41,003 nt of DNA, taken from IMG/VR virus record IMGVR_UViG_3300045988_002471, positions 1 to 41,003 of that record. One strand, given 5' to 3'. Each line of letters opens with the position of its first letter. Position 1 is the stretch's first letter. The notes beneath the pieces were generated by a model, which was not told the DNA's origin, searched no databases, and saw nothing but the letters and a program-made list of their open reading frames with translations. The position numbers and the translations under genes were made by a program. This document shows positions 1 to 41,003 of the stretch, one piece after another. The DNA comes from a virus (taxonomy: Duplodnaviria > Heunggongvirae > Uroviricota > Caudoviricetes).

Positions 1-55
1 ATGCGCCGCGCGTACAAAGACGGTTAATTCTGTACTGGCGGAAGAACTTGAAGAC
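1..55. repeat. 55-bp direct duplication of window end (identical to 40949..41003); circular closure / terminal redundancy
   Basis: Bases 1..55 are identical to 40949..41003 by direct reading; an ORF reads through the junction in frame. Confidence 0.9.
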
Positions 56-6616: not shown

Positions 6617-6620
6617 AGAA

Positions 6621-6648
6621 AAGGCCCCGTTTGGGGCCTTAGTTTTAT
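6621..6648 (+). terminator. Rho-independent terminator (AAGGCCCC-gttt-GGGGCCTT + T-run) ending the plus-strand early operon; convergent with tailspike 3' end
   Basis: Perfect 8-bp GC stem then AGTTTTATTT. Confidence 0.7.
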
Positions 6649-13035: not shown

Positions 13036-13532
13036 TGCATAGGGTCCCAAATTCGTGGAAACGTTGATTGTGCGGTTCCGTAGGCTTTAAGGAAACACCC
13101 CAGCCCATCACCATAGCAGCCGTACAAATCGGGCAGATTGTTAATCAGGCACTGGTTCTCAAGGTCCTGGAACGGTGATTTCTCGGCGGTTGCCGTGAAG
13201 GTGATTGTCCAGTTAATCCCGTCTTCGGTGGACTCGGCGATAGTGGACGTAATGGTTACCTGATAATCTTCGATGCCCATGCCGAAGTCGTGCGCCATCC
13301 AGAAACTTGACGCACCACCGTCTACTTTTTCGAGGAACGACAGAAACGCCTGCCGTCCCAGTGCCGATGTAATCAGGGTTACGCTAACAGGGAACACGTC
13401 GTAATACGTGTCACGGCCCTGACGCACCCCGCCACCGGCTAAATCTACACTCCAGACGTTGTTACGTCTGGTCATTGAGTAGCCTTTCGATACAATTGGC
13501 TTAAGGCTACGTGGGAAATATAAGTCGCTCAT
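13032..13532 (-). CDS. Minor tail protein (distal tail, downstream of tape measure)
   Basis: 166 aa; start overlaps tape-measure stop. Confidence 0.45.
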   Translation of the reverse strand: MSDLYFPRSLKPIVSKGYSMTRRNNVWSVDLAGGGVRQGRDTYYDVFPVSVTLITSALGRQAFLSFLEKVDGGASSFWMAHDFGMGIEDYQVTITSTIAESTEDGINWTITFTATAEKSPFQDLENQCLINNLPDLYGCYGDGLGCFLKAYGTAQSTFPRIWDPMQ

Positions 13533-15805
13533 TATTTAAACCCCGGCGCATTTCTTGTGGCTTTGCGGGCCTTGCTAATCTTACTGTTGCTGTTCTGCAA
13601 AGATGCAGCAACTTGCTCTTCTATGATGATACGCAGACGGCCTTCATCATCTTGCTCAGTAGATACGTTGCCAATTTGAGAACTCGTGTTGTTTACGATA
13701 GTAACATTAGACGGGCCGGAAGAAGACCCGTTTTGCCCCATAATTTCTTTCATCTGCTGCGCGGTGCGAACACGCGATGCACCCGCGGGCATGATAACTT
13801 CTGGTTTACCGCGTTCAGCGATAGTAGAAGCCTGCCCGGCGGATAACTGCCCACCCTGTTCACGCGCAGACCTGATAGCGGAAACCTGCGCCATACCCGC
13901 CCCAACGGCAGCGGCGGCCGCTACAGGCGCTAAGAACGGGCCGACTACAGGGATAGCCGCCGTTGACTTATACGCCTCAATAGCCGCGGTGTACGTGGCG
14001 ATGGTGGCCTGTACGATAGCGAATGCCTTGTACGCACCAGAAGCCTCCCCCAACGCAGACCCGATGTTTGAGGCCATGTTACCAAAGGCGGTTGCCGTTG
14101 CGTCGGCGCGCTTCGTAGCATACTGCTCGTTGATGGCGTTAAGCGCGGCCTGGTACTGTTTCTCATTAATAAGCCCCTGCTCACGGTACTTATCCGCTAC
14201 CGCCAGTTTCTGCTGTTCCTGGATGTCGAGAAGCTCAAGCTCAGTAGCGTTCTGACCCATAATCTGAGCCATGAAGTCGTCACCTTTCTGCTGCTTTTCC
14301 TGGGCTTCTTTCTGGCGTTTATCCAGTTCATCTTGCCGTTTTTGCCCGGCTTCGAGGACGATAGCTGTTTTAGCCTGTTCGTATTCTTTCAGCGACAGCG
14401 CGCCCTGGCTGTAGAACTCTTTTGCCTTAGCCAGTTTCTGCTGTTCCTGCGCGTCGATAGCCTTTAACTCATCGTTGTTCTGGCGAGCCAAAGTGTCGAG
14501 GTAATCCTGCGCCTGATTCCGCAATTGTTCTGCTTTCTTGGCGGCGGCTTTTGCTGCTTTATCGTCGGTGTTTCCTGCCCCGCCAGTTCCGCCCTTTTTA
14601 TTAACAAGACTGGCTAAGTCAATTTCTTGCTTCTTGCGCTCGTCGTACTGCTTGCGCTGTTCCTCAATTTCTTTCTTACGCTGCTTAGACCTGTTGGTAA
14701 TGGCCTGTGATTCTGCCTCAGCGCGTTTTATGCTAGCGGCGTACGCGGCGTCGGCCTCTGCGGTCAGGTTTTTAAATGTTAGCGCCGCCGTTTTGCTCGG
14801 GTCAAACACGTCGGCAAGGGTCTGCCCTAACGCTACAGCGTAATCGTCGATGCGCTGGAACCACGCAATAACCTCGTGAAATGTCTGCTGGATGTCCGGC
14901 AACCACTCACGGATGGCATCCGGTATAGTCCCCAGCGAGTCAGACATATCAACGGATTTGTCATCGGTATCGAATGCCAGGTCATTCAAGGCGTCGGAAA
15001 TAAACTTGAATGACTCATTGAACAGCGCCACCCAATCCTGGAGCGTGGCGGCTATCTCATTAGACGCGATGGCGTCGGTAAGCGCCGTGATAGCGTCTTC
15101 CGCTGTGGCCGCTTGCTCACCTACGGCGCCGCCAAAACCAGACCGCGCCACCGCAAGAACAAGACCGTCGAAGGAGTCGGCGAGGCTCGATAACTGGCCG
15201 TCTAGCGTCTTAGAGCGCGTCTCCATCGCCCCGGCAAAATCGGTGTTGCCGATATTCAGGAGGTATTTCTGAATCTCTTCGGAGTTCTTCTTAACCGTGG
15301 TCGTTACGCCGCGGAACGTGAACGAAACTGTATCTGCCTGTTGCGACGACTTGATGCCGAACTCTTTTAAGCGCTCAAATTCAAATGTACTGGCGTCGGC
15401 AACTGCCTCAATCATCTGATTAAGGTCTTTACCCATAGCCGCCGCGGTGTTGCCGTAGGAGATTAATGCCTCTTTGCTGGGGTTCAGACCGAGCGCAACG
15501 AGCTTGGTAAACCCCTCTACCGCCTGATTGAGACCGTACGGGGTCTCTTTTGCGAACTGTTGCAGGACGCTGAAAGCCTTAGCCGCGTTCTCGGCGCTCC
15601 CGGTCATCGTGATGAGGCTGGAGTTCAGCTTATCGAAGTTTCGCTGGGAATCCACCAGCGCGCTGAACACCTGCTTAGCGGTTTCCAGACTGACAACGGC
15701 GGCGGCGGCGGCCCCCGCCGCCTTGGTAAGCCCGTTCAGTTGTGATGTGGTTTTATCGACGCCGGTCGATGATACTCGTACTATCAAGCTAGCGGTATCA
15801 GCCAT
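13532..15805 (-). CDS. Tail tape measure protein
   Basis: About 757 aa, Ala/Gln-rich coiled-coil composition; follows chaperone pair; start set to ATG 15805 after RBS GAAGG (track start is TTG). Confidence 0.8.
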   Translation of the reverse strand: MADTASLIVRVSSTGVDKTTSQLNGLTKAAGAAAAAVVSLETAKQVFSALVDSQRNFDKLNSSLITMTGSAENAAKAFSVLQQFAKETPYGLNQAVEGFTKLVALGLNPSKEALISYGNTAAAMGKDLNQMIEAVADASTFEFERLKEFGIKSSQQADTVSFTFRGVTTTVKKNSEEIQKYLLNIGNTDFAGAMETRSKTLDGQLSSLADSFDGLVLAVARSGFGGAVGEQAATAEDAITALTDAIASNEIAATLQDWVALFNESFKFISDALNDLAFDTDDKSVDMSDSLGTIPDAIREWLPDIQQTFHEVIAWFQRIDDYAVALGQTLADVFDPSKTAALTFKNLTAEADAAYAASIKRAEAESQAITNRSKQRKKEIEEQRKQYDERKKQEIDLASLVNKKGGTGGAGNTDDKAAKAAAKKAEQLRNQAQDYLDTLARQNNDELKAIDAQEQQKLAKAKEFYSQGALSLKEYEQAKTAIVLEAGQKRQDELDKRQKEAQEKQQKGDDFMAQIMGQNATELELLDIQEQQKLAVADKYREQGLINEKQYQAALNAINEQYATKRADATATAFGNMASNIGSALGEASGAYKAFAIVQATIATYTAAIEAYKSTAAIPVVGPFLAPVAAAAAVGAGMAQVSAIRSAREQGGQLSAGQASTIAERGKPEVIMPAGASRVRTAQQMKEIMGQNGSSSGPSNVTIVNNTSSQIGNVSTEQDDEGRLRIIIEEQVAASLQNSNSKISKARKATRNAPGFK

Positions 15806-16130
15806 GATTTCTACCTTCAAAGATTGCTTCTAAGCCCATGATAATGTCTATCTCGAACAGGCTAAGCTGTTTTTGCGTAACATCGAGATAGGCTTTCAGG
15901 TCTTGCCACGTAACAGATTCTCTTGCAAACAATACTACAGCGTCCTCGCGCACGTGTCGCGTAAACTTAATGTCGCAATACGTCTCAAAGGTGGATATAA
16001 AAAGGGGCGGGCATTCTGGCCCGCCCCGTCGCGCTGCACGTTTTTTCTTATCGATTACACCCATCGCGATAAGCGCCTGTTCGTGTCCGTCGGCGATAGA
16101 ATCAAACTCTCTGATTTTATGCTTATCCAC
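15798..16130 (-). CDS. Tail assembly chaperone T-like frame, probably expressed as a G-T fusion by -1 frameshift
   Basis: Frame is open from 16181 with no ATG; -1 relative to the upstream gene; GGAAAAG at 16166..16172. Confidence 0.45.
   Translation of the reverse strand: MDKHKIREFDSIADGHEQALIAMGVIDKKKRAARRGGPECPPLFISTFETYCDIKFTRHVREDAVVLFARESVTWQDLKAYLDVTQKQLSLFEIDIIMGLEAIFEGRNHG
16004..16035 (-). terminator. Intragenic terminator-like hairpin (GGGGCGGGC-N6-GCCCGCCCC then TTTTTATAT on minus strand) inside the T-like frame
   Basis: Perfect 9-bp GC stem at 16004..16027 with a U-run on the coding strand. Confidence 0.45.
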
Positions 16131-16162
16131 AAACTCGTAGGTGGCGAACCTGTACAGCGCGT

Positions 16163-16579
16163 CTACTTTTCCTGTAATACTTTACGCTCGGCGTTATGGA
16201 ACGCCGCCACCTGTGTGCCTAATGCCTTGAACTGGTCCAGCAATTTGTTAAATGCTTCTTTAGAGAAAGGCTCATCAAAGCTCCAGCCGTTTACGACTTC
16301 TGCCGCGAGTTGCCGGTTGAGGTCTTCCGCCAGTTCGTTAATAGCCAGGTTATATTCAGTATAGTCGCCGGATTCTTTGGCGGCTTTTTCCAGTTCTTCG
16401 AAACGCGCCAACCCGCGACGGTACGCAATAATGAAAGCACGCCCCGCTTTAACGGCGACATCCGCATCGGGACTTACAACGTTAAGCCATTCACCGGAGT
16501 CTTCGCCGTTTGGCAGGAGAATCGGCATCTTCTTGCCCGCCAGTGCTTTCTCTTCGAAATAAAAATCAGAAAGTTTCAT
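16163..16579 (-). CDS. Tail assembly chaperone (lambda G-like)
   Basis: 138 aa, acidic; directly upstream of T-like frame and tape measure. Confidence 0.55.
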   Translation of the reverse strand: MKLSDFYFEEKALAGKKMPILLPNGEDSGEWLNVVSPDADVAVKAGRAFIIAYRRGLARFEELEKAAKESGDYTEYNLAINELAEDLNRQLAAEVVNGWSFDEPFSKEAFNKLLDQFKALGTQVAAFHNAERKVLQEK

Positions 16580-16687
16580 TCTTTAATCCTTTGGTTAAGA
16601 GGTTACAGGTTAACGATAAATGCGCCAGACGGGAACCACCCGCTTTTCGTGTGCGACACTAGGCGCAAACTTATTCTATCACATTAC

Positions 16688-16716
16688 TTGCACACCCCAA
16701 TATAATAGGGTACTAT
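16688..16716 (+). promoter_or_regulatory. Promoter TTGCAC-N17-TACTAT with operator-like palindrome (16703..16720) driving the plus-strand island
   Basis: -35 at 16688..16693, -10 at 16711..16716; the ~38-bp block recurs at 34662..34700 and 35663..35700. Confidence 0.55.
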
Positions 16717-16746
16717 TCACTTACACCAACAATGAAGGGGTTTAAA

Positions 16747-16938
16747 ATGTCCAGTTTACCAGTTTCCTTAATTCTGTTTGCACTGCTCGCTTATTTCGCG
16801 CCTTTCCTGGTTGCGTACTTCCGTAACCATAAAGCGAAGTTAGCGATATTCATGGCTAATCTGTTTCTTGGTTGGGTTCTGCTGCCGTGGGTATTTATTT
16901 TAATCTGGGCTTGCAACTCGAATGTCAAAGAGAAGTGA
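16747..16938 (+). CDS. Small two-TM membrane protein, superinfection-immunity (Imm)-like
   Basis: MSSLPVSLILFALLAYFAPFLVAYF...NLFLGWVLLPWVFILIWACN; start at ATG 16747 after RBS AAGGGG; Imm assignment is from memory of the family motif. Confidence 0.45.
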   Translation: MSSLPVSLILFALLAYFAPFLVAYFRNHKAKLAIFMANLFLGWVLLPWVFILIWACNSNVKEK

Positions 16939-16976
16939 GCTAGTATAGGACAAATCCTAAACACGAGGAAATAGGC

Positions 16977-18107
16977 ATGGCCCAGAAGAAAATAACCGAC
17001 GAACAGTTACAGGAAGAATTGAACGCTGGGATGAAGAATATCGACATTGCTCGTAAATACGGCATCTCAGACCGCGTAATTCGTATCCGTAAAGCGAAGC
17101 TGGCTAAGAAAGGCGTAGGTCACGGGCGCGACGTTAGTCACCTTGTGCCGGACGGCTACAAGATTAAAGGAACGTCGTCACTGGTGGACGAGTTCGGCAA
17201 CACTAAGTTGCAATGGGTTAAAACCGACACTGACGCCGAACGTCAGGTTGAGTTGATGAAGGCCGTAATCGAGGGCATGAAGTCGGAGATTACCCCCGTT
17301 GCTCCTGTTAAAGCCGTTCGCGCCAAACGAGACGACAAGCTACTCAACCTTTACACTGTGTCTGATTTCCATCTCGGTATGCTGGCCTGGGCTGACGAGA
17401 GCGGCGACGACTGGGACATGAAGATTGCGGAAGACCTGTTCTCCCGCTGGTTCGACGCAGCGTTCCAGAAAGCACCGGATGCAGGAACAGGAGTTATTAA
17501 TCTGCTGGGCGACCTTGCGCATTTTGATAGTCTGGACGCCGTTACACCTGCCAGTGGTCATGTTCTTGACGCTGACACCCGCTATCAGAAACTTGTACGC
17601 TACATGATTCGTATGGTCCGCCGTGTCATTGATATGGCTCTCGTTAAACATAAAAATGTTCGCTTGCTTATCGTGCAAGGTAACCACGACGAAAGCGGAA
17701 TGATTTGGTTGGCTGAGATGTTCAGTACGCTATACGACAACGAGCCGCGTGTGTTCGTCGATACGTCGCCGGATGTTTACAAGATGGTGCAACACGGCAA
17801 AACTACGCTGTTCTTTCACCACGGCCATAAAGCACGATTCGATGCTATCGAACCAGTTATGATCGCCAAGTTCCGCAAAGCGTTCGGCGAGAGTGTTTAC
17901 AGCTACGCCCATATAGGACACCTGCACCATCAGAAGATTGTAGAAAGCCGTAACATGATTGTTGAACAACACCGCACCCTGGCGGCTAAAGACGCCTACG
18001 CCTCGCGCGGCGGATGGATGTCGGGCCGCAGTGCAAACGTAATTACTTATAGTGCCGAATATGGCGAGGTCGCACGTTTAACTATTTCACCGGAGATGCT
18101 TGGATGA
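16977..18107 (+). CDS. Calcineurin-like metallophosphoesterase with N-terminal HTH-like domain
   Basis: Phosphoesterase motifs DFHLG, GDLAHFD, GNHDE, HHGH, GHLHH; N-terminal about 60 aa resemble a small HTH. Confidence 0.7.
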   Translation: MAQKKITDEQLQEELNAGMKNIDIARKYGISDRVIRIRKAKLAKKGVGHGRDVSHLVPDGYKIKGTSSLVDEFGNTKLQWVKTDTDAERQVELMKAVIEGMKSEITPVAPVKAVRAKRDDKLLNLYTVSDFHLGMLAWADESGDDWDMKIAEDLFSRWFDAAFQKAPDAGTGVINLLGDLAHFDSLDAVTPASGHVLDADTRYQKLVRYMIRMVRRVIDMALVKHKNVRLLIVQGNHDESGMIWLAEMFSTLYDNEPRVFVDTSPDVYKMVQHGKTTLFFHHGHKARFDAIEPVMIAKFRKAFGESVYSYAHIGHLHHQKIVESRNMIVEQHRTLAAKDAYASRGGWMSGRSANVITYSAEYGEVARLTISPEMLG

Positions 18108-18589
18108 AAGATATTGTGATTTTCGATTTAGACGGGACATTGGCAGATGGTACTCATCGTTTACACCTGCTGCCGAAAGATAACTACGGCGAAACCTGGG
18201 CGTGGAAACCATTTAACATGGCGTGCAAAGACGATGCACCCATTAAAGATAACATCGAACTGTGTAACGCCATTAATCGTCGCTATGCCGTTATTATCTT
18301 AACAGGCCGTAGTGATGACGCGGAAAAAGAAACCAGAATGTGGTTGCAGCGCCACCGCGTCGAATTTTATCAGTTAATCATGCGCAGCAAACACGACAAC
18401 AGAAAAGACATCGTAATTAAAGAAGAGGTGTTGCGTGCTATTGGGCCGGAGAGAATCTTGTGTGCATTCGACGACTCTCCAGCGGTAATAAAGCATTTCC
18501 GCGAACTCGGCATAACCACTCACGCAGTTACTGAATACGACTGTAACGGGAACTCTACACACTTAAAACCACATGGGAGTGATAAATAA
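18104..18589 (+). CDS. HAD-family phosphatase, T4 polynucleotide kinase 3'-phosphatase-domain-like
   Basis: VIFDLDGTLA (DxDGT), IILTGRS, K, AFDDSP motifs; resemblance to T4 Pnk phosphatase domain recalled from memory. Confidence 0.65.
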   Translation: MKDIVIFDLDGTLADGTHRLHLLPKDNYGETWAWKPFNMACKDDAPIKDNIELCNAINRRYAVIILTGRSDDAEKETRMWLQRHRVEFYQLIMRSKHDNRKDIVIKEEVLRAIGPERILCAFDDSPAVIKHFRELGITTHAVTEYDCNGNSTHLKPHGSDK

Positions 18590-19143
18590 TGGCTAAGGTA
18601 ATTATTCTTAATGGTCCTGCGGGCTGCGGGAAAGACACACTTGCTAGGGCGCTGGTAGAAATGGGCTTTGCGAAGGGTGTCGCCAGTTTCAAGAATCCGA
18701 TGTTCAATATTGCTATGGCTGCGTTAGGCCAGGATGCTTACCGCGAGTTTCTCGACGGCTACGACGACCGGGCGCGGAAAGAAAAGCCAGAGGGTTTCCT
18801 TAACGGGTTGTCTCGGCGTCAGTTCATGATTGCCATTTCCGAGCAATTCATTAAACCGGTATTCGGTGATGATTATTTCGGCAAGTATCTTGCCGGAAAC
18901 TTGCCCGACGGCAACGAAGTTTTTGTAGTGTCCGACGGTGGATTCGCCAGCGAAGTAGCCCCTATCGTTGCCGCGGGGCATGATGTGAGAATCGTCCGCT
19001 TGCACAGAGACGGCCATACGTTTGAAGGGGACAGCCGCGGTTACCTGTACGATATTGATGGTGTAAAAGATTACGACACCTACATCATACCGGGTGACGT
19101 TAAATCGAACGTTATAGACATTGCTTTAAAATTAGGTTTGTAA
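18589..19143 (+). CDS. P-loop kinase (dNMP-kinase-like or polynucleotide-kinase-like)
   Basis: Walker A GPAGCGKDT; about 184 aa; start overlaps upstream stop. Confidence 0.6.
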   Translation: MAKVIILNGPAGCGKDTLARALVEMGFAKGVASFKNPMFNIAMAALGQDAYREFLDGYDDRARKEKPEGFLNGLSRRQFMIAISEQFIKPVFGDDYFGKYLAGNLPDGNEVFVVSDGGFASEVAPIVAAGHDVRIVRLHRDGHTFEGDSRGYLYDIDGVKDYDTYIIPGDVKSNVIDIALKLGL

Positions 19144-19180
19144 GAAAAAAAAAAAGGCCCCGAAAGGGGCCTTAGTTTTA
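19144..19180. terminator. Bidirectional rho-independent terminator (A-run, AAGGCCCC-gaaa-GGGGCCTT, T-run)
   Basis: Perfect stem flanked by A12 and T-run between convergent genes. Confidence 0.75.
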
Positions 19181-20350
19181 TGCGTAGGTGATACGTTGAA
19201 TTACGATAGACGACTGGTACTGATTGCCGGTAGCCTGGCCTTCAATGGACTGAGTGATTGACTCAGGCCCACCAATCTCAGGTGTAACCGCCGTAAGCTC
19301 TGCACGTTTCAAACTGAAAGACATAGCCCCGTTTACCCCTGCCAGAATAGAGTTAATCTCTACCTGCTGCTCGTTGATAAACTTCTGAATCATCGCCATG
19401 TCGTACAGCTTGCCAGAGATAGAGAATGTGTTAGCTGCGCGTCCACGTTCGACGAACGCCACGCTACTGTTACCGAGTTCGAACTGCGCGGAAGCTCCGT
19501 TGTCGTTGGTGATGGTGAGAGTATCGCAACGCAACGGCGTGGAGCCATCGAACACCGACACATCTACCGACGAGAACGGCTCATCGGTGAACGTAACCTG
19601 AGAGAAATCAGAGCCAGACGGCGACGCGGTAAGAATCTCCTGACTCAGGCCGATGAACGGGAAGCTGCCGGTGACCATGGCGTTAACCGCCTGCTCTACG
19701 GTAAAGCCAGAGATTTCCACACCTTTGGTCAGCATGTACGCGTCCGGGGTACCACACTGGCCCTTGAACCACGTCAGGATGGAGAACGTCTTACACGCGT
19801 TACCGGTTTCCAGCTTGTCGCCAGTTTTTGCGTCAGTGGTTACTGTCTCTGCTGTCAGCGTGTGCTGAATACCTGCGCCCGTAACTACCAGAGCGGAAAC
19901 CGCGGTCACGATAAACGGTTTTGCGTTGTCGCCGGTTAAGTCGGTGAACGCAATCAGGTCGCCAACTTCAACGCCGTCGGTAATAAAGCTGCCATCGGCA
20001 CGGGTGAACGTCTTGCCTGCGGGTGCAACGGTAATCGATAACCCTGACAGAGAAACCCCGGACTGCCACGTAGAGCCTAAAGCGCCCGCCAGCCAGTCGT
20101 CCTGGCTTTTCGAGCTAAGCTCAATTGCGTACTCCCCGCTAACCTGTTTGTTGCCGGTGCGGATGGAGGTAGTTTCACGGCTGCCGTCCAGTTCGTTGGA
20201 TGTCAGTGTGTCGCGGGTAATGGCAGGAACGCCACCCGTGTTACGCAACGGCGACCATACCGGGTTAGTCGGTGTTACACCCGGGGTCGCTTCCGCCACA
20301 TAGAATTGCGCCGTATTCGCGCCCTTAAAAGGAGTTGTAGCCATATTCAC
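19178..20350 (-). CDS. Major tail protein (putative)
   Basis: 390 aa; directly downstream of tail-completion genes; ATGA coupling. Confidence 0.55.
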   Translation of the reverse strand: MNMATTPFKGANTAQFYVAEATPGVTPTNPVWSPLRNTGGVPAITRDTLTSNELDGSRETTSIRTGNKQVSGEYAIELSSKSQDDWLAGALGSTWQSGVSLSGLSITVAPAGKTFTRADGSFITDGVEVGDLIAFTDLTGDNAKPFIVTAVSALVVTGAGIQHTLTAETVTTDAKTGDKLETGNACKTFSILTWFKGQCGTPDAYMLTKGVEISGFTVEQAVNAMVTGSFPFIGLSQEILTASPSGSDFSQVTFTDEPFSSVDVSVFDGSTPLRCDTLTITNDNGASAQFELGNSSVAFVERGRAANTFSISGKLYDMAMIQKFINEQQVEINSILAGVNGAMSFSLKRAELTAVTPEIGGPESITQSIEGQATGNQYQSSIVIQRITYA

Positions 20351-24549: not shown

Positions 24550-24813
24550 CTATTCCAGAATATTCCTCACATAATCCTGCAACATGAACACTTTCAGTCT
24601 CAACTGCCGTACACATTCGGCGTTCTGAACGTCGATAGCTAAATCCTCGTCAGAGTCGCTACTTGGCGCCGCCAGTTTGCACGGCGGCTGCATCATCGTC
24701 GTATCCGGGGATGGAATTGGCGTTTGCGACGGCGCGGGACTTGAGCAGGACGCGAGCATCATCGAAAGTGCACACGCTGCGACCCGGCGTTTTAATGTAC
24801 TTAACGACTTCAC
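24550..24813 (-). CDS. o-spanin (Rz1-like outer-membrane lipoprotein), overlapped with i-spanin
   Basis: Lipobox-like MMLASC then Pro-rich periplasmic region; starts inside i-spanin in a different frame. Confidence 0.55.
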   Translation of the reverse strand: MKSLSTLKRRVAACALSMMLASCSSPAPSQTPIPSPDTTMMQPPCKLAAPSSDSDEDLAIDVQNAECVRQLRLKVFMLQDYVRNILE

Positions 24814-25045
24814 GGGTGATTACCTCTGATTTCGTCTTGCCTTCGTTATCAGCGGCGGCGGCCTTTGATTCATCCTGCTGCTGCCGTTGTGTTTTCTTCG
24901 CTAACTCAGCCTGTGCTTCCTGCTGTTGCTGCGAAACGAGATTCGCCCGGCCTTCGTTCCAGCCGCTGTGATACTGGTAGATGCCGTGGGCATAAGTCAG
25001 GATGATAAAACATGCCCCCGCTACGACAGTTGCTTTAAGATTCAT
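24659..25045 (-). CDS. i-spanin (Rz-like)
   Basis: N-terminal TM helix ATVVAGACFIILTYAHGIY then Gln/Ala-rich coiled coil. Confidence 0.6.
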   Translation of the reverse strand: MNLKATVVAGACFIILTYAHGIYQYHSGWNEGRANLVSQQQQEAQAELAKKTQRQQQDESKAAAADNEGKTKSEVITREVVKYIKTPGRSVCTFDDARVLLKSRAVANANSIPGYDDDAAAVQTGGAK

Positions 25046-25361: not shown

Positions 25362-25385
25362 TAAAAAGCCCCTTTCGGGGCTTAA
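25362..25385 (-). terminator. Rho-independent terminator after the Ig-like gene
   Basis: AAGCCCC-tttc-GGGGCTT with T-run on the minus strand. Confidence 0.6.
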
Positions 25386-25387
25386 GT

Positions 25388-25849
25388 TTATTCTGGCTTC
25401 GTAGCCTTCGCAGCTTTACTCACCGCCTCAACTCCAGTGGCATCAGTAACTTTAACGAAGTATTCACCCACCGCGTTAACCGTCAGAGACAAAGCCTCTT
25501 CCGGGGCGTTTACCACTTCCTTGCCGTCTTTGTACCAGGTCAGAGTATACGGCGCTTTACCTGCCTTAACTTCGACGGTGATGGTGGCGCTACCGTCGAC
25601 CAGCTCGGTGTCTTTCGGTTGCACCGAGAAATACACGTCACCTGCATCCGCCAGATACGGAATCTCGTAAAGCATACCCGCCGCGGGCAACGCAATGCCC
25701 GTTTTATCTGCAAACGGCATATCGTCTACAGGGGTACCCAGTACACTTTCATCATCAATAAACACCACGTTCTCACCAGAGCCAGACACGCGGGCGTACT
25801 GGACTACGCGACGTGACGGTACATCAGTTACTTTGAAAAAGCCCATCAT
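25388..25849 (-). CDS. Ig-like domain structural protein (possible head decoration)
   Basis: C-terminal TITVEVKAGKAPYTLTWYKDGKEV...EYFVKVTDATG; start overlaps upstream stop. Confidence 0.5.
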   Translation of the reverse strand: MMGFFKVTDVPSRRVVQYARVSGSGENVVFIDDESVLGTPVDDMPFADKTGIALPAAGMLYEIPYLADAGDVYFSVQPKDTELVDGSATITVEVKAGKAPYTLTWYKDGKEVVNAPEEALSLTVNAVGEYFVKVTDATGVEAVSKAAKATKPE

Positions 25850-27034: not shown

Positions 27035-27688
27035 ATGAAACTGCAAACATTAGAGTTCCCTTATGGAGAAATCACTTTTGACCGTGAAAACTTTATTAAC
27101 GTAAACGAGCTGGTTGACCAGATGAACCGTTGGCGTTTAGACAACGGCATGGGGACAAGAGAGCTTCGCCAGGTCATGGCAACGGATGGCTTCAAGATTT
27201 TCAAGGAGGAATGCGAAAAACAACTCGGAATCGAGAATGCCATAAGGGCGACGAAAGGCCGAAACGGTCGCACCTTTGCATGTCTCCATCTGGCAGTATA
27301 TATTGCTGAGCAATACAGCGCCTATTTCCATTTCCTCGTTATCGACCGCTTTATCACACAACGGCAGGTAGAACTACGAAACATTGGCGCGGTGAGCTTT
27401 GTCGAGCTTAACGCTGCCGTTAGTCGAATGATTGAGCGCACGGAGGGAAGAATTGGCCACAGTGGACACTTCATACAGGTGGCTAAAGCGGTAAAGGAAT
27501 CCGTAGATATCCGCGACGTAACGGGTTTCGATACATGGGACTCTCAGGATGCGAAGACCAATCAGTTGCGAAGTGACATCCAGAAAGCTCTGGTGACACT
27601 TCTTGACATGGAGGCCGTTAATACATGGGGTGAACTGAAAGAGGCGATACCCCGGGTTGTGCGTAAATGTGCGGCTAATATACGTTAA
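27035..27688 (+). CDS. KilA-N domain protein
   Basis: N-terminal ...INVNELVDQ...GRNGRTFACLHLAVYIAEQYSAYFHFLVIDRF matches KilA-N/APSES pattern from memory; only plus-strand gene inside the head module. Confidence 0.6.
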   Translation: MKLQTLEFPYGEITFDRENFINVNELVDQMNRWRLDNGMGTRELRQVMATDGFKIFKEECEKQLGIENAIRATKGRNGRTFACLHLAVYIAEQYSAYFHFLVIDRFITQRQVELRNIGAVSFVELNAAVSRMIERTEGRIGHSGHFIQVAKAVKESVDIRDVTGFDTWDSQDAKTNQLRSDIQKALVTLLDMEAVNTWGELKEAIPRVVRKCAANIR

Positions 27689-27692
27689 AGCT

Positions 27693-27720
27693 AAGGCCCC
27701 TAGCGGGGCCTTTCTATTTA
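27693..27720 (+). terminator. Rho-independent terminator (AAGGCCCC-tagc-GGGGCCTT + T-rich) between KilA-N gene and portal 3' end
   Basis: Perfect 8-bp stem then TCTATTTA. Confidence 0.6.
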
Positions 27721-32899: not shown

Positions 32900-33403
32900 T
32901 CAACCTTTCACCGCGCGCCCAATAGCCTCAGCCTCTTGCCACGGTTTACCGTCGAACAGCGCCAGACGCCCGGCTGTACGGCGACGCAGGCCAAGTAGTG
33001 GTTTGCCGTTCTGGTTGATGAACAGCGCCAGCTTAGCCCGCAGTGTTGCAGTATCACCAGAACGCAGTGCCTTGCCTGTGCCCGTAGTAGACGCAATCAC
33101 GCCAGCACCTGCGTTATACACCAGGTCACACACCGCATCGAACTGTGCCTGTGTAAGCGAATGGTGTGCTGCTGCGTCAACCGCAGCTACAGCCTTAGCC
33201 ATATCGCGATTCAGTAACAGTAAGCCCTGTCCTGGTGTGATGGTCTTACCTGGTGTTACGTCCGGCCCGTAGTGACCATAACCAATAGTCAGGTACTTCT
33301 CGTTCGGCGTAGCGCGATATGCAGTACCGCGGAACCCCTCGAACGCGGCGGTAAAATGCAATCCATTATCTGAAATATTTCGAGACACGCTTATGTCCTC
33401 CAT
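32900..33403 (-). CDS. Endolysin, lysozyme-like (GH24-type)
   Basis: FTAAFEGFRGTAY...TIGYGH lysozyme signature; start set to MEDISV (ATG 33403). Confidence 0.7.
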   Translation of the reverse strand: MEDISVSRNISDNGLHFTAAFEGFRGTAYRATPNEKYLTIGYGHYGPDVTPGKTITPGQGLLLLNRDMAKAVAAVDAAAHHSLTQAQFDAVCDLVYNAGAGVIASTTGTGKALRSGDTATLRAKLALFINQNGKPLLGLRRRTAGRLALFDGKPWQEAEAIGRAVKG

Positions 33404-33638
33404 ACGACAGCCACGCCTGGCGAATCTGACGCAGTGCAACTAAAGTGATTAATGTCTCAGGCAGCGTAGGCGACATGCTGCCCTGTAACAGGTGAATACA
33501 TCCGGCGGCGCAGACAATAGCGGTCAGGATATAGAGCACCCGGCCAAATAATCCGTCGTCCACGCTGGGATGATATACATTAAACAGCGATGCGCCACCG
33601 ATTGCCAGCATACCGCCGAACCAGAATAGCTCATTCAT
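33366..33638 (-). CDS. Small two-TM membrane protein (holin/antiholin-like)
   Basis: Two hydrophobic segments; start set to MNELFWFGG; overlaps endolysin start. Confidence 0.4.
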   Translation of the reverse strand: MNELFWFGGMLAIGGASLFNVYHPSVDDGLFGRVLYILTAIVCAAGCIHLLQGSMSPTLPETLITLVALRQIRQAWLSYGGHKRVSKYFR

Positions 33639-33939
33639 CAGGGCCTCCTCGACGTGCAATGTATTCTCCGGCGACGATACCGGAGAGGCGGGAATAGAGG
33701 GGCATCCAGAGAATAGCAATGATGAACCCAAGGCCCGCTATTTCGCGTTCACCTGTGATACCGAACCATTGTGCTGCGAGAGGCGCACCAAATACGGCGC
33801 AGGTGAAGCCAGTTGCAATAAAGCAGAAGCCGTCAATAGGGCCAGAAATAACGGACTTATGTTGCCTTAGTCCGATTACCCCACCAGCTAGTGCGGCGGC
33901 GAGAAGCCACCCCGTCACTGTTTCAGTAAATTTATCCAA
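33631..33939 (-). CDS. Holin (three predicted TM segments), TTG start
   Basis: 102 aa, hydrophobic segments, charged C-terminus; RBS GGAGGA 6 nt before TTG. Confidence 0.55.
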   Translation of the reverse strand: MDKFTETVTGWLLAAALAGGVIGLRQHKSVISGPIDGFCFIATGFTCAVFGAPLAAQWFGITGEREIAGLGFIIAILWMPLYSRLSGIVAGEYIARRGGPDE

Positions 33940-34661: not shown

Positions 34662-34700
34662 AAATGAATAGTAGCCTATTCTATCTTAGTGTGCAAGTAA
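34662..34700 (-). promoter_or_regulatory. Promoter TTGCAC-N17-TACTAT with palindromic operator GAATAGTAGCCTATTC (34666..34681)
   Basis: Perfect 6-bp half-site inverted repeat overlapping the -10. Confidence 0.55.
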
Positions 34701-34877: not shown

Positions 34878-35001
34878 TGTTGCATCTCCTGCAATAGTCG
34901 CTTCGATTGTTGCGTTTGATGAAAGTGTCGCCTTTTGACGACACTAAGTTAAAGTTGTACGCTGCTGTGTAGCAGCGTAAGTCATTAAGCCAAATAGTAA
35001 G

Positions 35002-38920: not shown

Positions 38921-38940
38921 AAAGGGGCATTAAGCCCCTT
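38921..38940 (-). terminator. Terminator-like hairpin (GGGGC-attaa-GCCCC) with T-rich tail on the minus strand, overlapping the repressor stop
   Basis: Short GC stem followed by TTTCTTTTTAC on the minus strand. Confidence 0.4.
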
Positions 38941-39145
38941 CACCGAACGCCAGCCACTTGGCGTCTACTTGTAGCACTTCCGCCAGCTTGAACAGCGTCG
39001 CCGGCCGGACGTCCTGAGTTACCCCGAGCGCAAGCTGGTTAATCGCGCCCTGGGAAACGCCAGCCAGGACCGCCAGACGGCGCTGGGAGATGCCGAGTTC
39101 TTTACGGCGTTGTTCTACGCGGATACCTAGTTCAGATGGTTGCAT
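38930..39145 (-). CDS. XRE-family HTH transcriptional regulator (Cro/CI-like)
   Basis: LGISQRRLAVLAGVSQGAINQLALG helix-turn-helix; 71 aa; divergent from operator-bearing promoter. Confidence 0.8.
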   Translation of the reverse strand: MQPSELGIRVEQRRKELGISQRRLAVLAGVSQGAINQLALGVTQDVRPATLFKLAEVLQVDAKWLAFGEGA

Positions 39146-39172: not shown

Positions 39173-39190
39173 GTGAATAGTACCATATTA
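39173..39190. promoter_or_regulatory. Operator-like site GTGAATAGTACCATATTA upstream of the repressor gene
   Basis: GAATAG half-site shared with five other sites. Confidence 0.45.
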
Positions 39191-39209: not shown

Positions 39210-39238
39210 TTGACACGTGAATAGTTCGCTATTATAGT
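39210..39238 (+). promoter_or_regulatory. Promoter TTGACA-N17-TATAGT with embedded operator GAATAGTTCGCTATTA (39219..39234)
   Basis: Consensus -35 and near-consensus -10; operator occupies the spacer. Confidence 0.65.
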
Positions 39239-40104: not shown

Positions 40105-41003
40105 TTCTTAAAGAACGCGGTGGAAATAACGATGTTCACGCATTACTGTCGCCGTCTGGGGCTAAAAAGTGGCTAAGCTGTGCCGCATCACTGGCCTGTG
40201 AGAAAGATATTCCTAACTCGTCCGGCAAAGCTGCCGTATTAGGTACAGCAATGCACACCATAGCAGAGATGCATCTTAACCAGTACATCAAAGGCACTGC
40301 GCTGCCGTTAGAGCGCGAAGTCGGGGCTTACGTGCTGGATGAAGGTAAAGGCCAGATTAAGGCTCTAATCAGCCCGATGAAAGGCGCGGTACTTATTACG
40401 GCGGACATGATTGAACAGGTGCGCAAGTACACCGACTACTGCAAAGCGATTATAGACGTAGCTACTTACGCTAAGCTGGAAATGCGCGTCAATCTTACAC
40501 AGATTCTACACCCCGGGTACAAAGTACCCGTTGAAGGTGAAGAAGGCGAGGAAGATGATTTAGAGACGTTCGGAACGGCTGACCTTGTTGCCGTTCAGGA
40601 ACTGGCTAACACCGACGAGTACATGCTCATTATTGGCGACCTTAAAACGGGTCGGCATCGTGTCGAAGCGAAAGAAAACAAGCAGCTTATGCTTTACGCT
40701 CTCGGTGTTTATCGCAGACTCAAGAGACGTTATAACATCACCGTTGTCCGTCTGGTTATCTTCCAGCCGTACGCGGGCGGTGCGTCGGAGTGGGACATCT
40801 CGGTTGAGGGACTTGAACTGTTCGCTAAGTTCGCACAGAAACGGGCGCTGTTGGCCCTTGATGCCTATTTCCGTGGTAAGAAGAACCTGAAAGCGTCGGA
40901 CTTCAAGCCATCAGCCGATGGTTGCCAGTGGTGCCGGTTCTCTGAACAATGCGCCGCGCGTACAAAGACGGTTAATTCTGTACTGGCGGAAGAACTTGAA
41001 GAC
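40101..41003 (+). CDS. PD-(D/E)XK exonuclease, Cas4-like / DUF2800-like, N-terminal part (continues as 1..436 across the junction)
   Basis: Own translation from ATG 40101 (ATGA overlap with upstream stop): GTADLV...IGDLKTG nuclease motifs, QLMLYALG (QxxxY) motif, N-terminal C..C and C-terminal CQWCRFSEQC cysteine cluster; no stop before window end. Confidence 0.7.
   Translation, partial: MILKERGGNNDVHALLSPSGAKKWLSCAASLACEKDIPNSSGKAAVLGTAMHTIAEMHLNQYIKGTALPLEREVGAYVLDEGKGQIKALISPMKGAVLITADMIEQVRKYTDYCKAIIDVATYAKLEMRVNLTQILHPGYKVPVEGEEGEEDDLETFGTADLVAVQELANTDEYMLIIGDLKTGRHRVEAKENKQLMLYALGVYRRLKRRYNITVVRLVIFQPYAGGASEWDISVEGLELFAKFAQKRALLALDAYFRGKKNLKASDFKPSADGCQWCRFSEQCAARTKTVNSVLAEELED
40949..41003. 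repeat. Second copy of the 55-bp junction duplication
   Basis: Identical to 1..55. Confidence 0.9.

Follow-up and report, generated by a model that had tools for sequence, protein, structure and literature searches.

The imm-like coding sequence considered here lies at positions 16747..16938 on the plus strand (192 nt, encoding 63 aa plus a stop codon) of a viral DNA stretch of 41,003 nucleotides, which is called the window below. It is the first of four plus-strand genes (16747-19143) set among minus-strand tail genes. The second gene of this cassette encodes a metallophosphoesterase or 'DNA repair exonuclease' (16977..18107, +), and Pfam and PHROG searches assign the third to a polynucleotide kinase (PNK)-type HAD phosphatase (18104..18589, +) and the fourth to a P-loop deoxynucleoside monophosphate (dNMP) kinase-like protein (18589..19143, +). 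The cassette is closed by a hairpin resembling a bidirectional intrinsic terminator (19154..19173), and the preliminary description of this DNA was right to say that the small gene leads an island. The surrounding minus-strand genes encode the major tail protein (19178-20350), a tail assembly chaperone (16163..16579) and the tape measure protein (13532..15820), and an antisense ORF (16791..16964) overlaps imm itself.

Two further features of this neighbourhood were recorded. The chaperone gene forms a minus-strand pair (15798-16579) with an overlapping downstream ORF (15798..16130), and in relatives this pair is annotated as the product of a programmed frameshift. Near-identical GC-rich hairpins of the form AAAAGGCCCC-N4-GGGGCCTTAGTTTTAT are present at 6619-6648, 19152-19181, 25363-25392 and 27686-27719, in each case where long ORFs switch strand; this hairpin family looks like a set of shared bidirectional terminators.

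The window belongs to a Kagunavirus (Guernseyvirinae, K1G-like), the region being 96.9% identical to that of Escherichia phage vB_EcoS_fTaEco01 and 96.3% identical to that of phage K1G. Kagunavirus phages are virulent siphoviruses according to the BASEL paper (10.1101/2024.09.12.612763); what had been called a lytic-looking siphovirus can hence be named, from the identity of its relatives and from that work, as a virulent Kagunavirus. An exact 55-nt direct repeat is found at both ends of the window (1-55 and 40949-41003), most simply explained by overlapping ends, either because the assembly is circular or because the genome is terminally redundant.

Translation of the ORF gives a 63-aa product, MSSLPVSLILFALLAYFAPFLVAYFRNHKAKLAIFMANLFLGWVLLPWVFILIWACNSNVKEK. 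Its ATG at 16747 is preceded at a distance of 6 nt by a Shine-Dalgarno sequence, AAGGGG (16735-16740), read directly from the DNA; an alternative in-frame ATG at 16732 was rejected as the start, as it has no Shine-Dalgarno sequence and relatives annotate a 192-nt gene. The codons of imm differ from those of K1G at two positions and from those of fTaEco01 at three, all of these differences being synonymous, and 22 of the 43 codons that differ from Jerseyvirus SP-101 are synonymous as well. Judged by these substitutions, the imm reading frame is under purifying selection, and the protein is conserved across two genera.

A Kyte-Doolittle profile places two hydrophobic segments at residues ~3-25 and ~30-57, separated by a positively charged loop (R26/H28/K29/K31), and an AlphaFold2 model built from a shallow ten-sequence alignment has helices at 3-25 and 29-61 with a mean pLDDT of 75.9. 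The second segment carries the motif N38-L-F-L-G-W43...W48...W54. The small product with two hydrophobic segments and an NLFLGW...W motif that had been reported at 16747-16938 is thus present in every particular. A fold search with the AlphaFold2 model against BFVD returned nothing significant (best E = 2.6), a result that we do not use as evidence since it is expected for a two-helix membrane hairpin.

The preliminary description had linked the motif to the Imm superinfection-immunity family and had proposed a Pfam search as a check. That search matches the protein to PF14373 (Imm_superinfect) with 48.6 bits and E = 7.5e-13 over profile positions 2-42 of 42, the domain occupying residues 16-56; the curated gathering score is 27.9 bits, and T4 Imm, taken from the T4 record as a positive control, scores 58.2 bits in the same Pfam library. 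The resemblance is therefore borne out. PHROG 1039 ("immunity to superinfection") also matches, with E = 1.4e-22, and a BLASTP comparison with T4 Imm gives 28% identity over 54 ungapped residues (E = 2e-10); NCBIfam holds no model that matches the protein. In a 157-sequence alignment of the family, all of the near-invariant residues are present in the window protein (Y16, F17, P19, A23, R26, H28, I34, N38, G42, W43, W48 and W54), the lone deviation being P47, where 139 of the 157 sequences have G. Taken together, these comparisons make membership of PF14373 a near certainty.

T4 Imm (NP_049660, 83 aa) is the founding member of PF14373 and carries the same domain over its full length. Both proteins come from virulent coliphages, and in both a hydrophobic helix at the N terminus precedes a Y-x-x-P...R...W...W...W core. 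One difference is in length: the window protein falls short of T4 Imm by 20 residues and does not have its hydrophilic C-terminal tail. Furthermore, the same alignment shows that T4 Imm is without the H, N and G residues of the family, which the window protein keeps as H28, N38 and G42, while at P47 it is the window protein that departs from the G found in T4 and in most of the family. On this residue pattern, the window protein is the canonical PF14373 member and T4 Imm the more divergent one. A PDB sequence search with T4 Imm as the query yielded no related solved structure.

The family to which both proteins belong is almost uncharacterised and very large: searched with a profile, 1.84 billion representative proteins gave 7,668 matching clusters at 50% identity (E <= 0.001). 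Its size was revealed only by this exhaustive profile search, a word-indexed homolog search having given just nine close clusters. Many of the homologs are parts of larger proteins, the longest having 332 aa.

Among phages, tblastn matches the 63-aa protein in 368 records, mostly those of Salmonella and Escherichia phages of ~40-45 kb; large phages account for a few records, including at least one member of the Straboviridae. Orthologs within the Guernseyvirinae, namely those of K1G (YP_009168803.1), fTaEco01 (QNO11883.1), Jerseyvirus SS3e (YP_308659.1) and SP-101 (YP_009617940.1), represent the same gene in the same orientation and position, between the tail assembly chaperone gene and the metallophosphoesterase gene. 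In Kagunavirus and Jerseyvirus alike, imm is divergent from the chaperone and tape measure genes and the metallophosphoesterase gene comes next, and imm is one of the genes conserved among the siphoviruses of the Guernseyvirinae. The proteins of K1G and fTaEco01 are 100% identical to that of the window and are labelled "immunity to superinfection" (in the RefSeq entry of K1G) and "superinfection immunity protein". Moreover, the gene is mentioned as a superinfection-immunity gene in work on K1-specific phages (PMC5582158) and on vB_Eco_K1B4 (PMC12645636). The superinfection-immunity annotation is correct, yet it is already known for the identical protein in GenBank/RefSeq relatives and hence is not a new call; as annotation it adds nothing to the label found in K1G, fTaEco01 and many other Guernseyvirinae records. 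Our literature searches turned up neither an exclusion experiment nor any other functional test on Imm homologs of the Guernseyvirinae.

On the plus strand, imm is preceded by two sigma-70-like promoter candidates that overlap each other, and its transcription is predicted to start near 16713-16723. One, ATCACA-17-TATAAT (16678-16706), was returned by a promoter scan with 10 of 12 hexamer positions matching; the other, TTGCAC-17-TACTAT (16688-16716), was read by eye. Both putative promoters overlap a palindromic operator-like site, AATAG-GGTA-CTATT, or AATAGGGTACTATT (16704-16717), which overlaps the -10 and start-site region. The statement that imm follows an operator-controlled promoter accordingly holds as a sequence pattern, that is, promoter-like hexamers overlapping a palindrome.

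The palindrome is not confined to imm. AATAG-N4-CTATT occurs in the window at seven perfect and four one-mismatch sites against 0.87 expected, and a count of 11 was reached in no shuffled sequence. Eight of the 14-nt sites are at promoter-like or intergenic positions (451, 4316, 16704, 34667, 34993, 35668, 39176 and 39220). Three near-consensus promoters, TTGACA/TTGACG-17-TATAGT (441, 4306 and 39210), each have one of these sites in their spacer. The TTGCAC...TACTATTCA layout of the imm promoter is seen again on the minus strand near 34700 and 35698, which gives three palindrome sites with the imm-type TTGCAC...AATAGGnTACTATTCA layout (16688 on the plus strand and the two on the minus strand); in promoters of this TTGCAC-17-TACTAT type the palindrome covers the -10. 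One further perfect site is that at 34993. A perfect AATAG-N4-CTATT also stands upstream of imm in two Jerseyvirus genomes.

A 71-aa XRE-type HTH protein is encoded at 38930..39145 on the minus strand (Pfam HTH_3, 48.2 bits). One related palindrome lies just upstream of its gene, and the sites at 39176-39189 and 39220-39233 flank the gene's own promoter region. The XRE protein is thus the obvious candidate for a repressor in this virulent phage, which would bind the AATAG-N4-CTATT sites.

On the early expression of imm that the preliminary description thought probable, the evidence is divided. The promoter class of imm is common to small early-region genes and to the XRE regulator gene. The only Kagunavirus transcriptome that we found, a crude data set for vB_Eco_K1B4, puts the imm ortholog in a 'late' class together with methyltransferase, cytosine methylase and DNA polymerase genes, although its expression classes are hard to interpret given a design with an MOI of 100 and sampling over a 120-min course (PMC12645636). 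The same study calls the imm ortholog 'involved in cell lysis', a phrase that seems to come from misreading the work on T4.

Work on T4 suggests how such a protein could act. T4 Imm co-purifies with the tape measure protein gp29 in a complex that has been resolved by cryo-EM, and its alanine mutants R33A and W50A weaken exclusion, R33 being in the core and W50 in a loop that faces the tape measure protein (bioRxiv 10.64898/2026.03.06.709160). The ungapped BLASTP offset of 7 and the family alignment agree in equating T4 R33 with R26 and T4 W50 with W43, so that both of these activity-relevant residues are kept in the window protein. In the tape measure protein of the window, a single hydrophobic segment resembling a TM helix spans residues ~619-650 of the longest ORF (nt ~13871-13966). 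Jerseyvirus has this segment in near-identical form, and it is part of a C-terminal region that is ~100% conserved across the tail types of Kagunavirus, a conservation that would parallel the invariant core of Imm.

Based on these observations, we propose the following course of events. Host RNA polymerase would probably transcribe imm from the sigma-70-like promoter that a phage operator overlaps, with imm at the head of a cassette that continues with the metallophosphoesterase, PNK-phosphatase and dNMP-kinase genes. The protein would insert in the inner membrane of the infected cell with, by homology to T4 Imm, its N terminus in the periplasm and its R-x-H-K-x-K loop in the cytoplasm, and from there may block the DNA of later phages of the same or a related kind from crossing that membrane. 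The most likely way is that it would bind the incoming tape measure protein, the hydrophobic segment of which could then not form a translocation channel. Since Kagunavirus phages are virulent and their receptors are glycans, which are hard to inactivate (10.1101/2024.09.12.612763), a block to entry at the inner membrane would be a sensible route of exclusion.

We consider it somewhat probable, by analogy with T4, that the Kagunavirus protein serves superinfection exclusion, and hold with a little less confidence that the tape measure protein would be its target. The window phage is a siphovirus with a tape measure protein unrelated in sequence to T4 gp29, and a direct comparison of the two found no detectable similarity (E = 1.1); the tape measure protein is hence put forward as the target purely by analogy. 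Three further points count against this view. The 'late' class of the vB_Eco_K1B4 ortholog fits an early exclusion role poorly, crude as that data set is; T4 Imm is the sole family member that we found to have been tested for exclusion, and is an atypical one; and the window protein is without the hydrophilic tail of 20 residues in which T4 Imm ends.

There is some room for a reading in which the protein is a true PF14373 member with a different job: acting on some part of the host inner membrane, for instance a transporter or a DNA-entry cofactor, protecting the cell against unrelated competitors, or performing a general function of the family. The breadth of the family (7,668 clusters, with many of the proteins longer) would suit such a reading, as would the lack of homology between the tape measure proteins of T4 and the window. 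T4 may also be unrepresentative, given that the window protein is closer than T4 Imm to the family consensus (R-x-H, N-L-F-L-G-W). In addition, a chromosomal homolog in Campylobacter, Cj0423, is part of the operon with the strongest induction on phage infection, a sign that roles in defence may go further than self-exclusion of the T4 type (PMC6024767). However, imm is fixed in position beside the tape measure module in a virulent phage subfamily, both residues important in T4 are conserved, and our analysis yields no pointer to a specific alternative target. We accordingly treat a different job as a tentative reading that is on the whole unlikely, albeit one to be taken seriously.

Much less can be said for a small membrane protein of lysis, be it a holin, an antiholin or a lysis-timing factor. 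The size of the protein and its two hydrophobic helices would fit, the best structural neighbours include a Pseudomonas phage holin at a non-significant E = 7, and the ortholog has been loosely called 'involved in cell lysis' and grouped as late (PMC12645636). Nevertheless, the phage has its own lysis genes elsewhere on the minus strand, namely two holin-like genes (33369-33939), an endolysin gene (32903-33388) and a spanin gene (24662-25045), and the Pfam and PHROG matches comprise PF14373 above its threshold and no holin family. With the lysis cassette (32903-33939) far from imm and no match to a holin family, the holin reading was rejected, and we regard any role in lysis as very improbable. 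A chance or mis-called ORF, its motif produced by hydrophobic composition, was likewise considered because the ORF is short, hydrophobic and of low complexity and is overlapped by an antisense ORF. Against this stand a good Shine-Dalgarno sequence, a Pfam match over the full domain, and conservation in two genera; the Pfam E-value and the synonymous-only differences to the close relatives rule it out for practical purposes, leaving it a negligible probability.

The window was also compared with fPoEco01, both being Kagunavirus. The two diverge along the chaperone gene up to 16562 (~55% identity), are 93-100% identical over a 172-nt control region (16563-16734), diverge again over a mosaic patch at 16735..16830 that contains the imm ribosome-binding site and codons 1-28, i.e. 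helix 1 (~45% identity between Kagunavirus isolates), and return to ~80-100% identity from ~16850 onward, across the remainder of imm and the sequence downstream. The divergence on the tail side forms a second patch (~14320-16562), comprising the chaperone and the N-terminal 500 aa of the tape measure protein. Imm exists in Kagunavirus as two N-terminal alleles, A (MSSLPV..., that of the window) and B (MTGITM...); allele B and the Jerseyvirus forms have an N-terminal helix other than that of the window Imm. The tail module also comes in two types, the second having a chaperone of ~56% identity to that of the window and a tape measure protein that differs in residues 1 to ~500, with residues 520-762, including the hydrophobic segment, ~100% identical between the types. 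Like these C-terminal 240 residues of the tape measure protein, the core of Imm is invariant between the Kagunavirus alleles.

The imm allele and the chaperone/tape-measure N-terminal type co-occur in 24 of 26 Kagunavirus loci: allele A is found with the window-type chaperone in 15 and allele B with the second type in nine. The two exceptions come from one metagenome, in which chimeric assembly is possible. As a check for clade structure, distances in the metallophosphoesterase gene were compared, and these do not separate the alleles. The pattern would fit a pairing of Imm helix 1 with the tail module, but we do not claim co-adaptation, since physical linkage over ~170 nt suffices as an explanation. 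A more specific reading, which we consider improbable though worth stating, is that Imm may be a two-part, allele-specific partner: its core (residues 28-63) would recognise the C-terminal, membrane-inserting part of the tape measure protein, and helix 1 would be matched to the chaperone and tape-measure N-terminal module. On this reading there would be a reason for the two divergent patches to remain associated although the conserved 172-nt control region lies between them. If true, it would extend the T4 Imm-tape measure mechanism to siphoviruses and offer a natural allelic series for exclusion specificity.

Small inner-membrane proteins that act after adsorption are also known from HK97 (gp15) and P22 (SieA). 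These prophage proteins block DNA entry and are functional analogues of the exclusion activity proposed here, but they are expressed from the prophages of temperate phages and not in lytic infection, and no tie to PF14373 was found for them; SieA is reported to be both required and enough for superinfection exclusion by the P22 SieA system (PMC10883804). Closer in lifestyle are Llp of T5 and Cor of T1, which, like imm of the window, are accessory exclusion genes in virulent E. coli siphoviruses; they differ in acting on outer-membrane receptors, in adjoining receptor-binding protein genes and in being unrelated in sequence (10.1101/2024.09.12.612763). As phages of the genus Kagunavirus are used and proposed for therapy and synthetic biology, an exclusion gene would bear on the design of cocktails, in which related phages that infect together may shut one another out. 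The binding of T4 Imm to its tape measure protein, reported in the 2026 preprint, opens a direct and cheap test of whether the family acts alike in siphoviruses.

A separate feature lies in the intergenic region, on the strand opposite to imm. On this minus strand, a structured RNA (16605-16669, core 16621-16667) resembles the Rfam family RF02996, int-alpA, over the full model (1-71). Its score in the window is 31.8 bits (E = 3.7e-5 to 1.1e-4), and those in two relatives are 33.8 and 31.6 bits, again over the full model; all three are below the gathering score of 35.8. The element is the most conserved part of the region between imm and the tail chaperone gene in Kagunavirus and Jerseyvirus, and its 19-nt core is present in 49 IMG/VR contigs, nearly all of 31-45 kb. 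The structure consists of two hairpins within an outer stem and, over 12 distinct variants, is 94% paired versus 36-53% in slid registers. Three of its pairs have compensatory changes, with U-G intermediates that are standard only on the minus strand. The structure is supported by this covariation. A putative extended -10, TG-A-TAGAAT, is found as the reverse complement of 16673-16681; it would set the start of transcription at the first base of the outer stem (~16666), making the element the 5' leader of the chaperone/tape measure operon.

In relatives, two annotations around imm are doubtful. A 41-aa ORF at 16620..16745 (+), hypothetical protein TE1_020 in fTaEco01, was rejected as a leader peptide or gene: the structured RNA and the promoter of imm fall within it, and Jerseyvirus indels in its span would break the frame. 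In fPoEco01, Imm is annotated as a 109-aa protein from a far-upstream start (locus L057 988..1317). Both annotations are probably wrong; for the Imm of fPoEco01, a 63-aa ORF that has an AGGAG site is a better fit than the 109-aa call.
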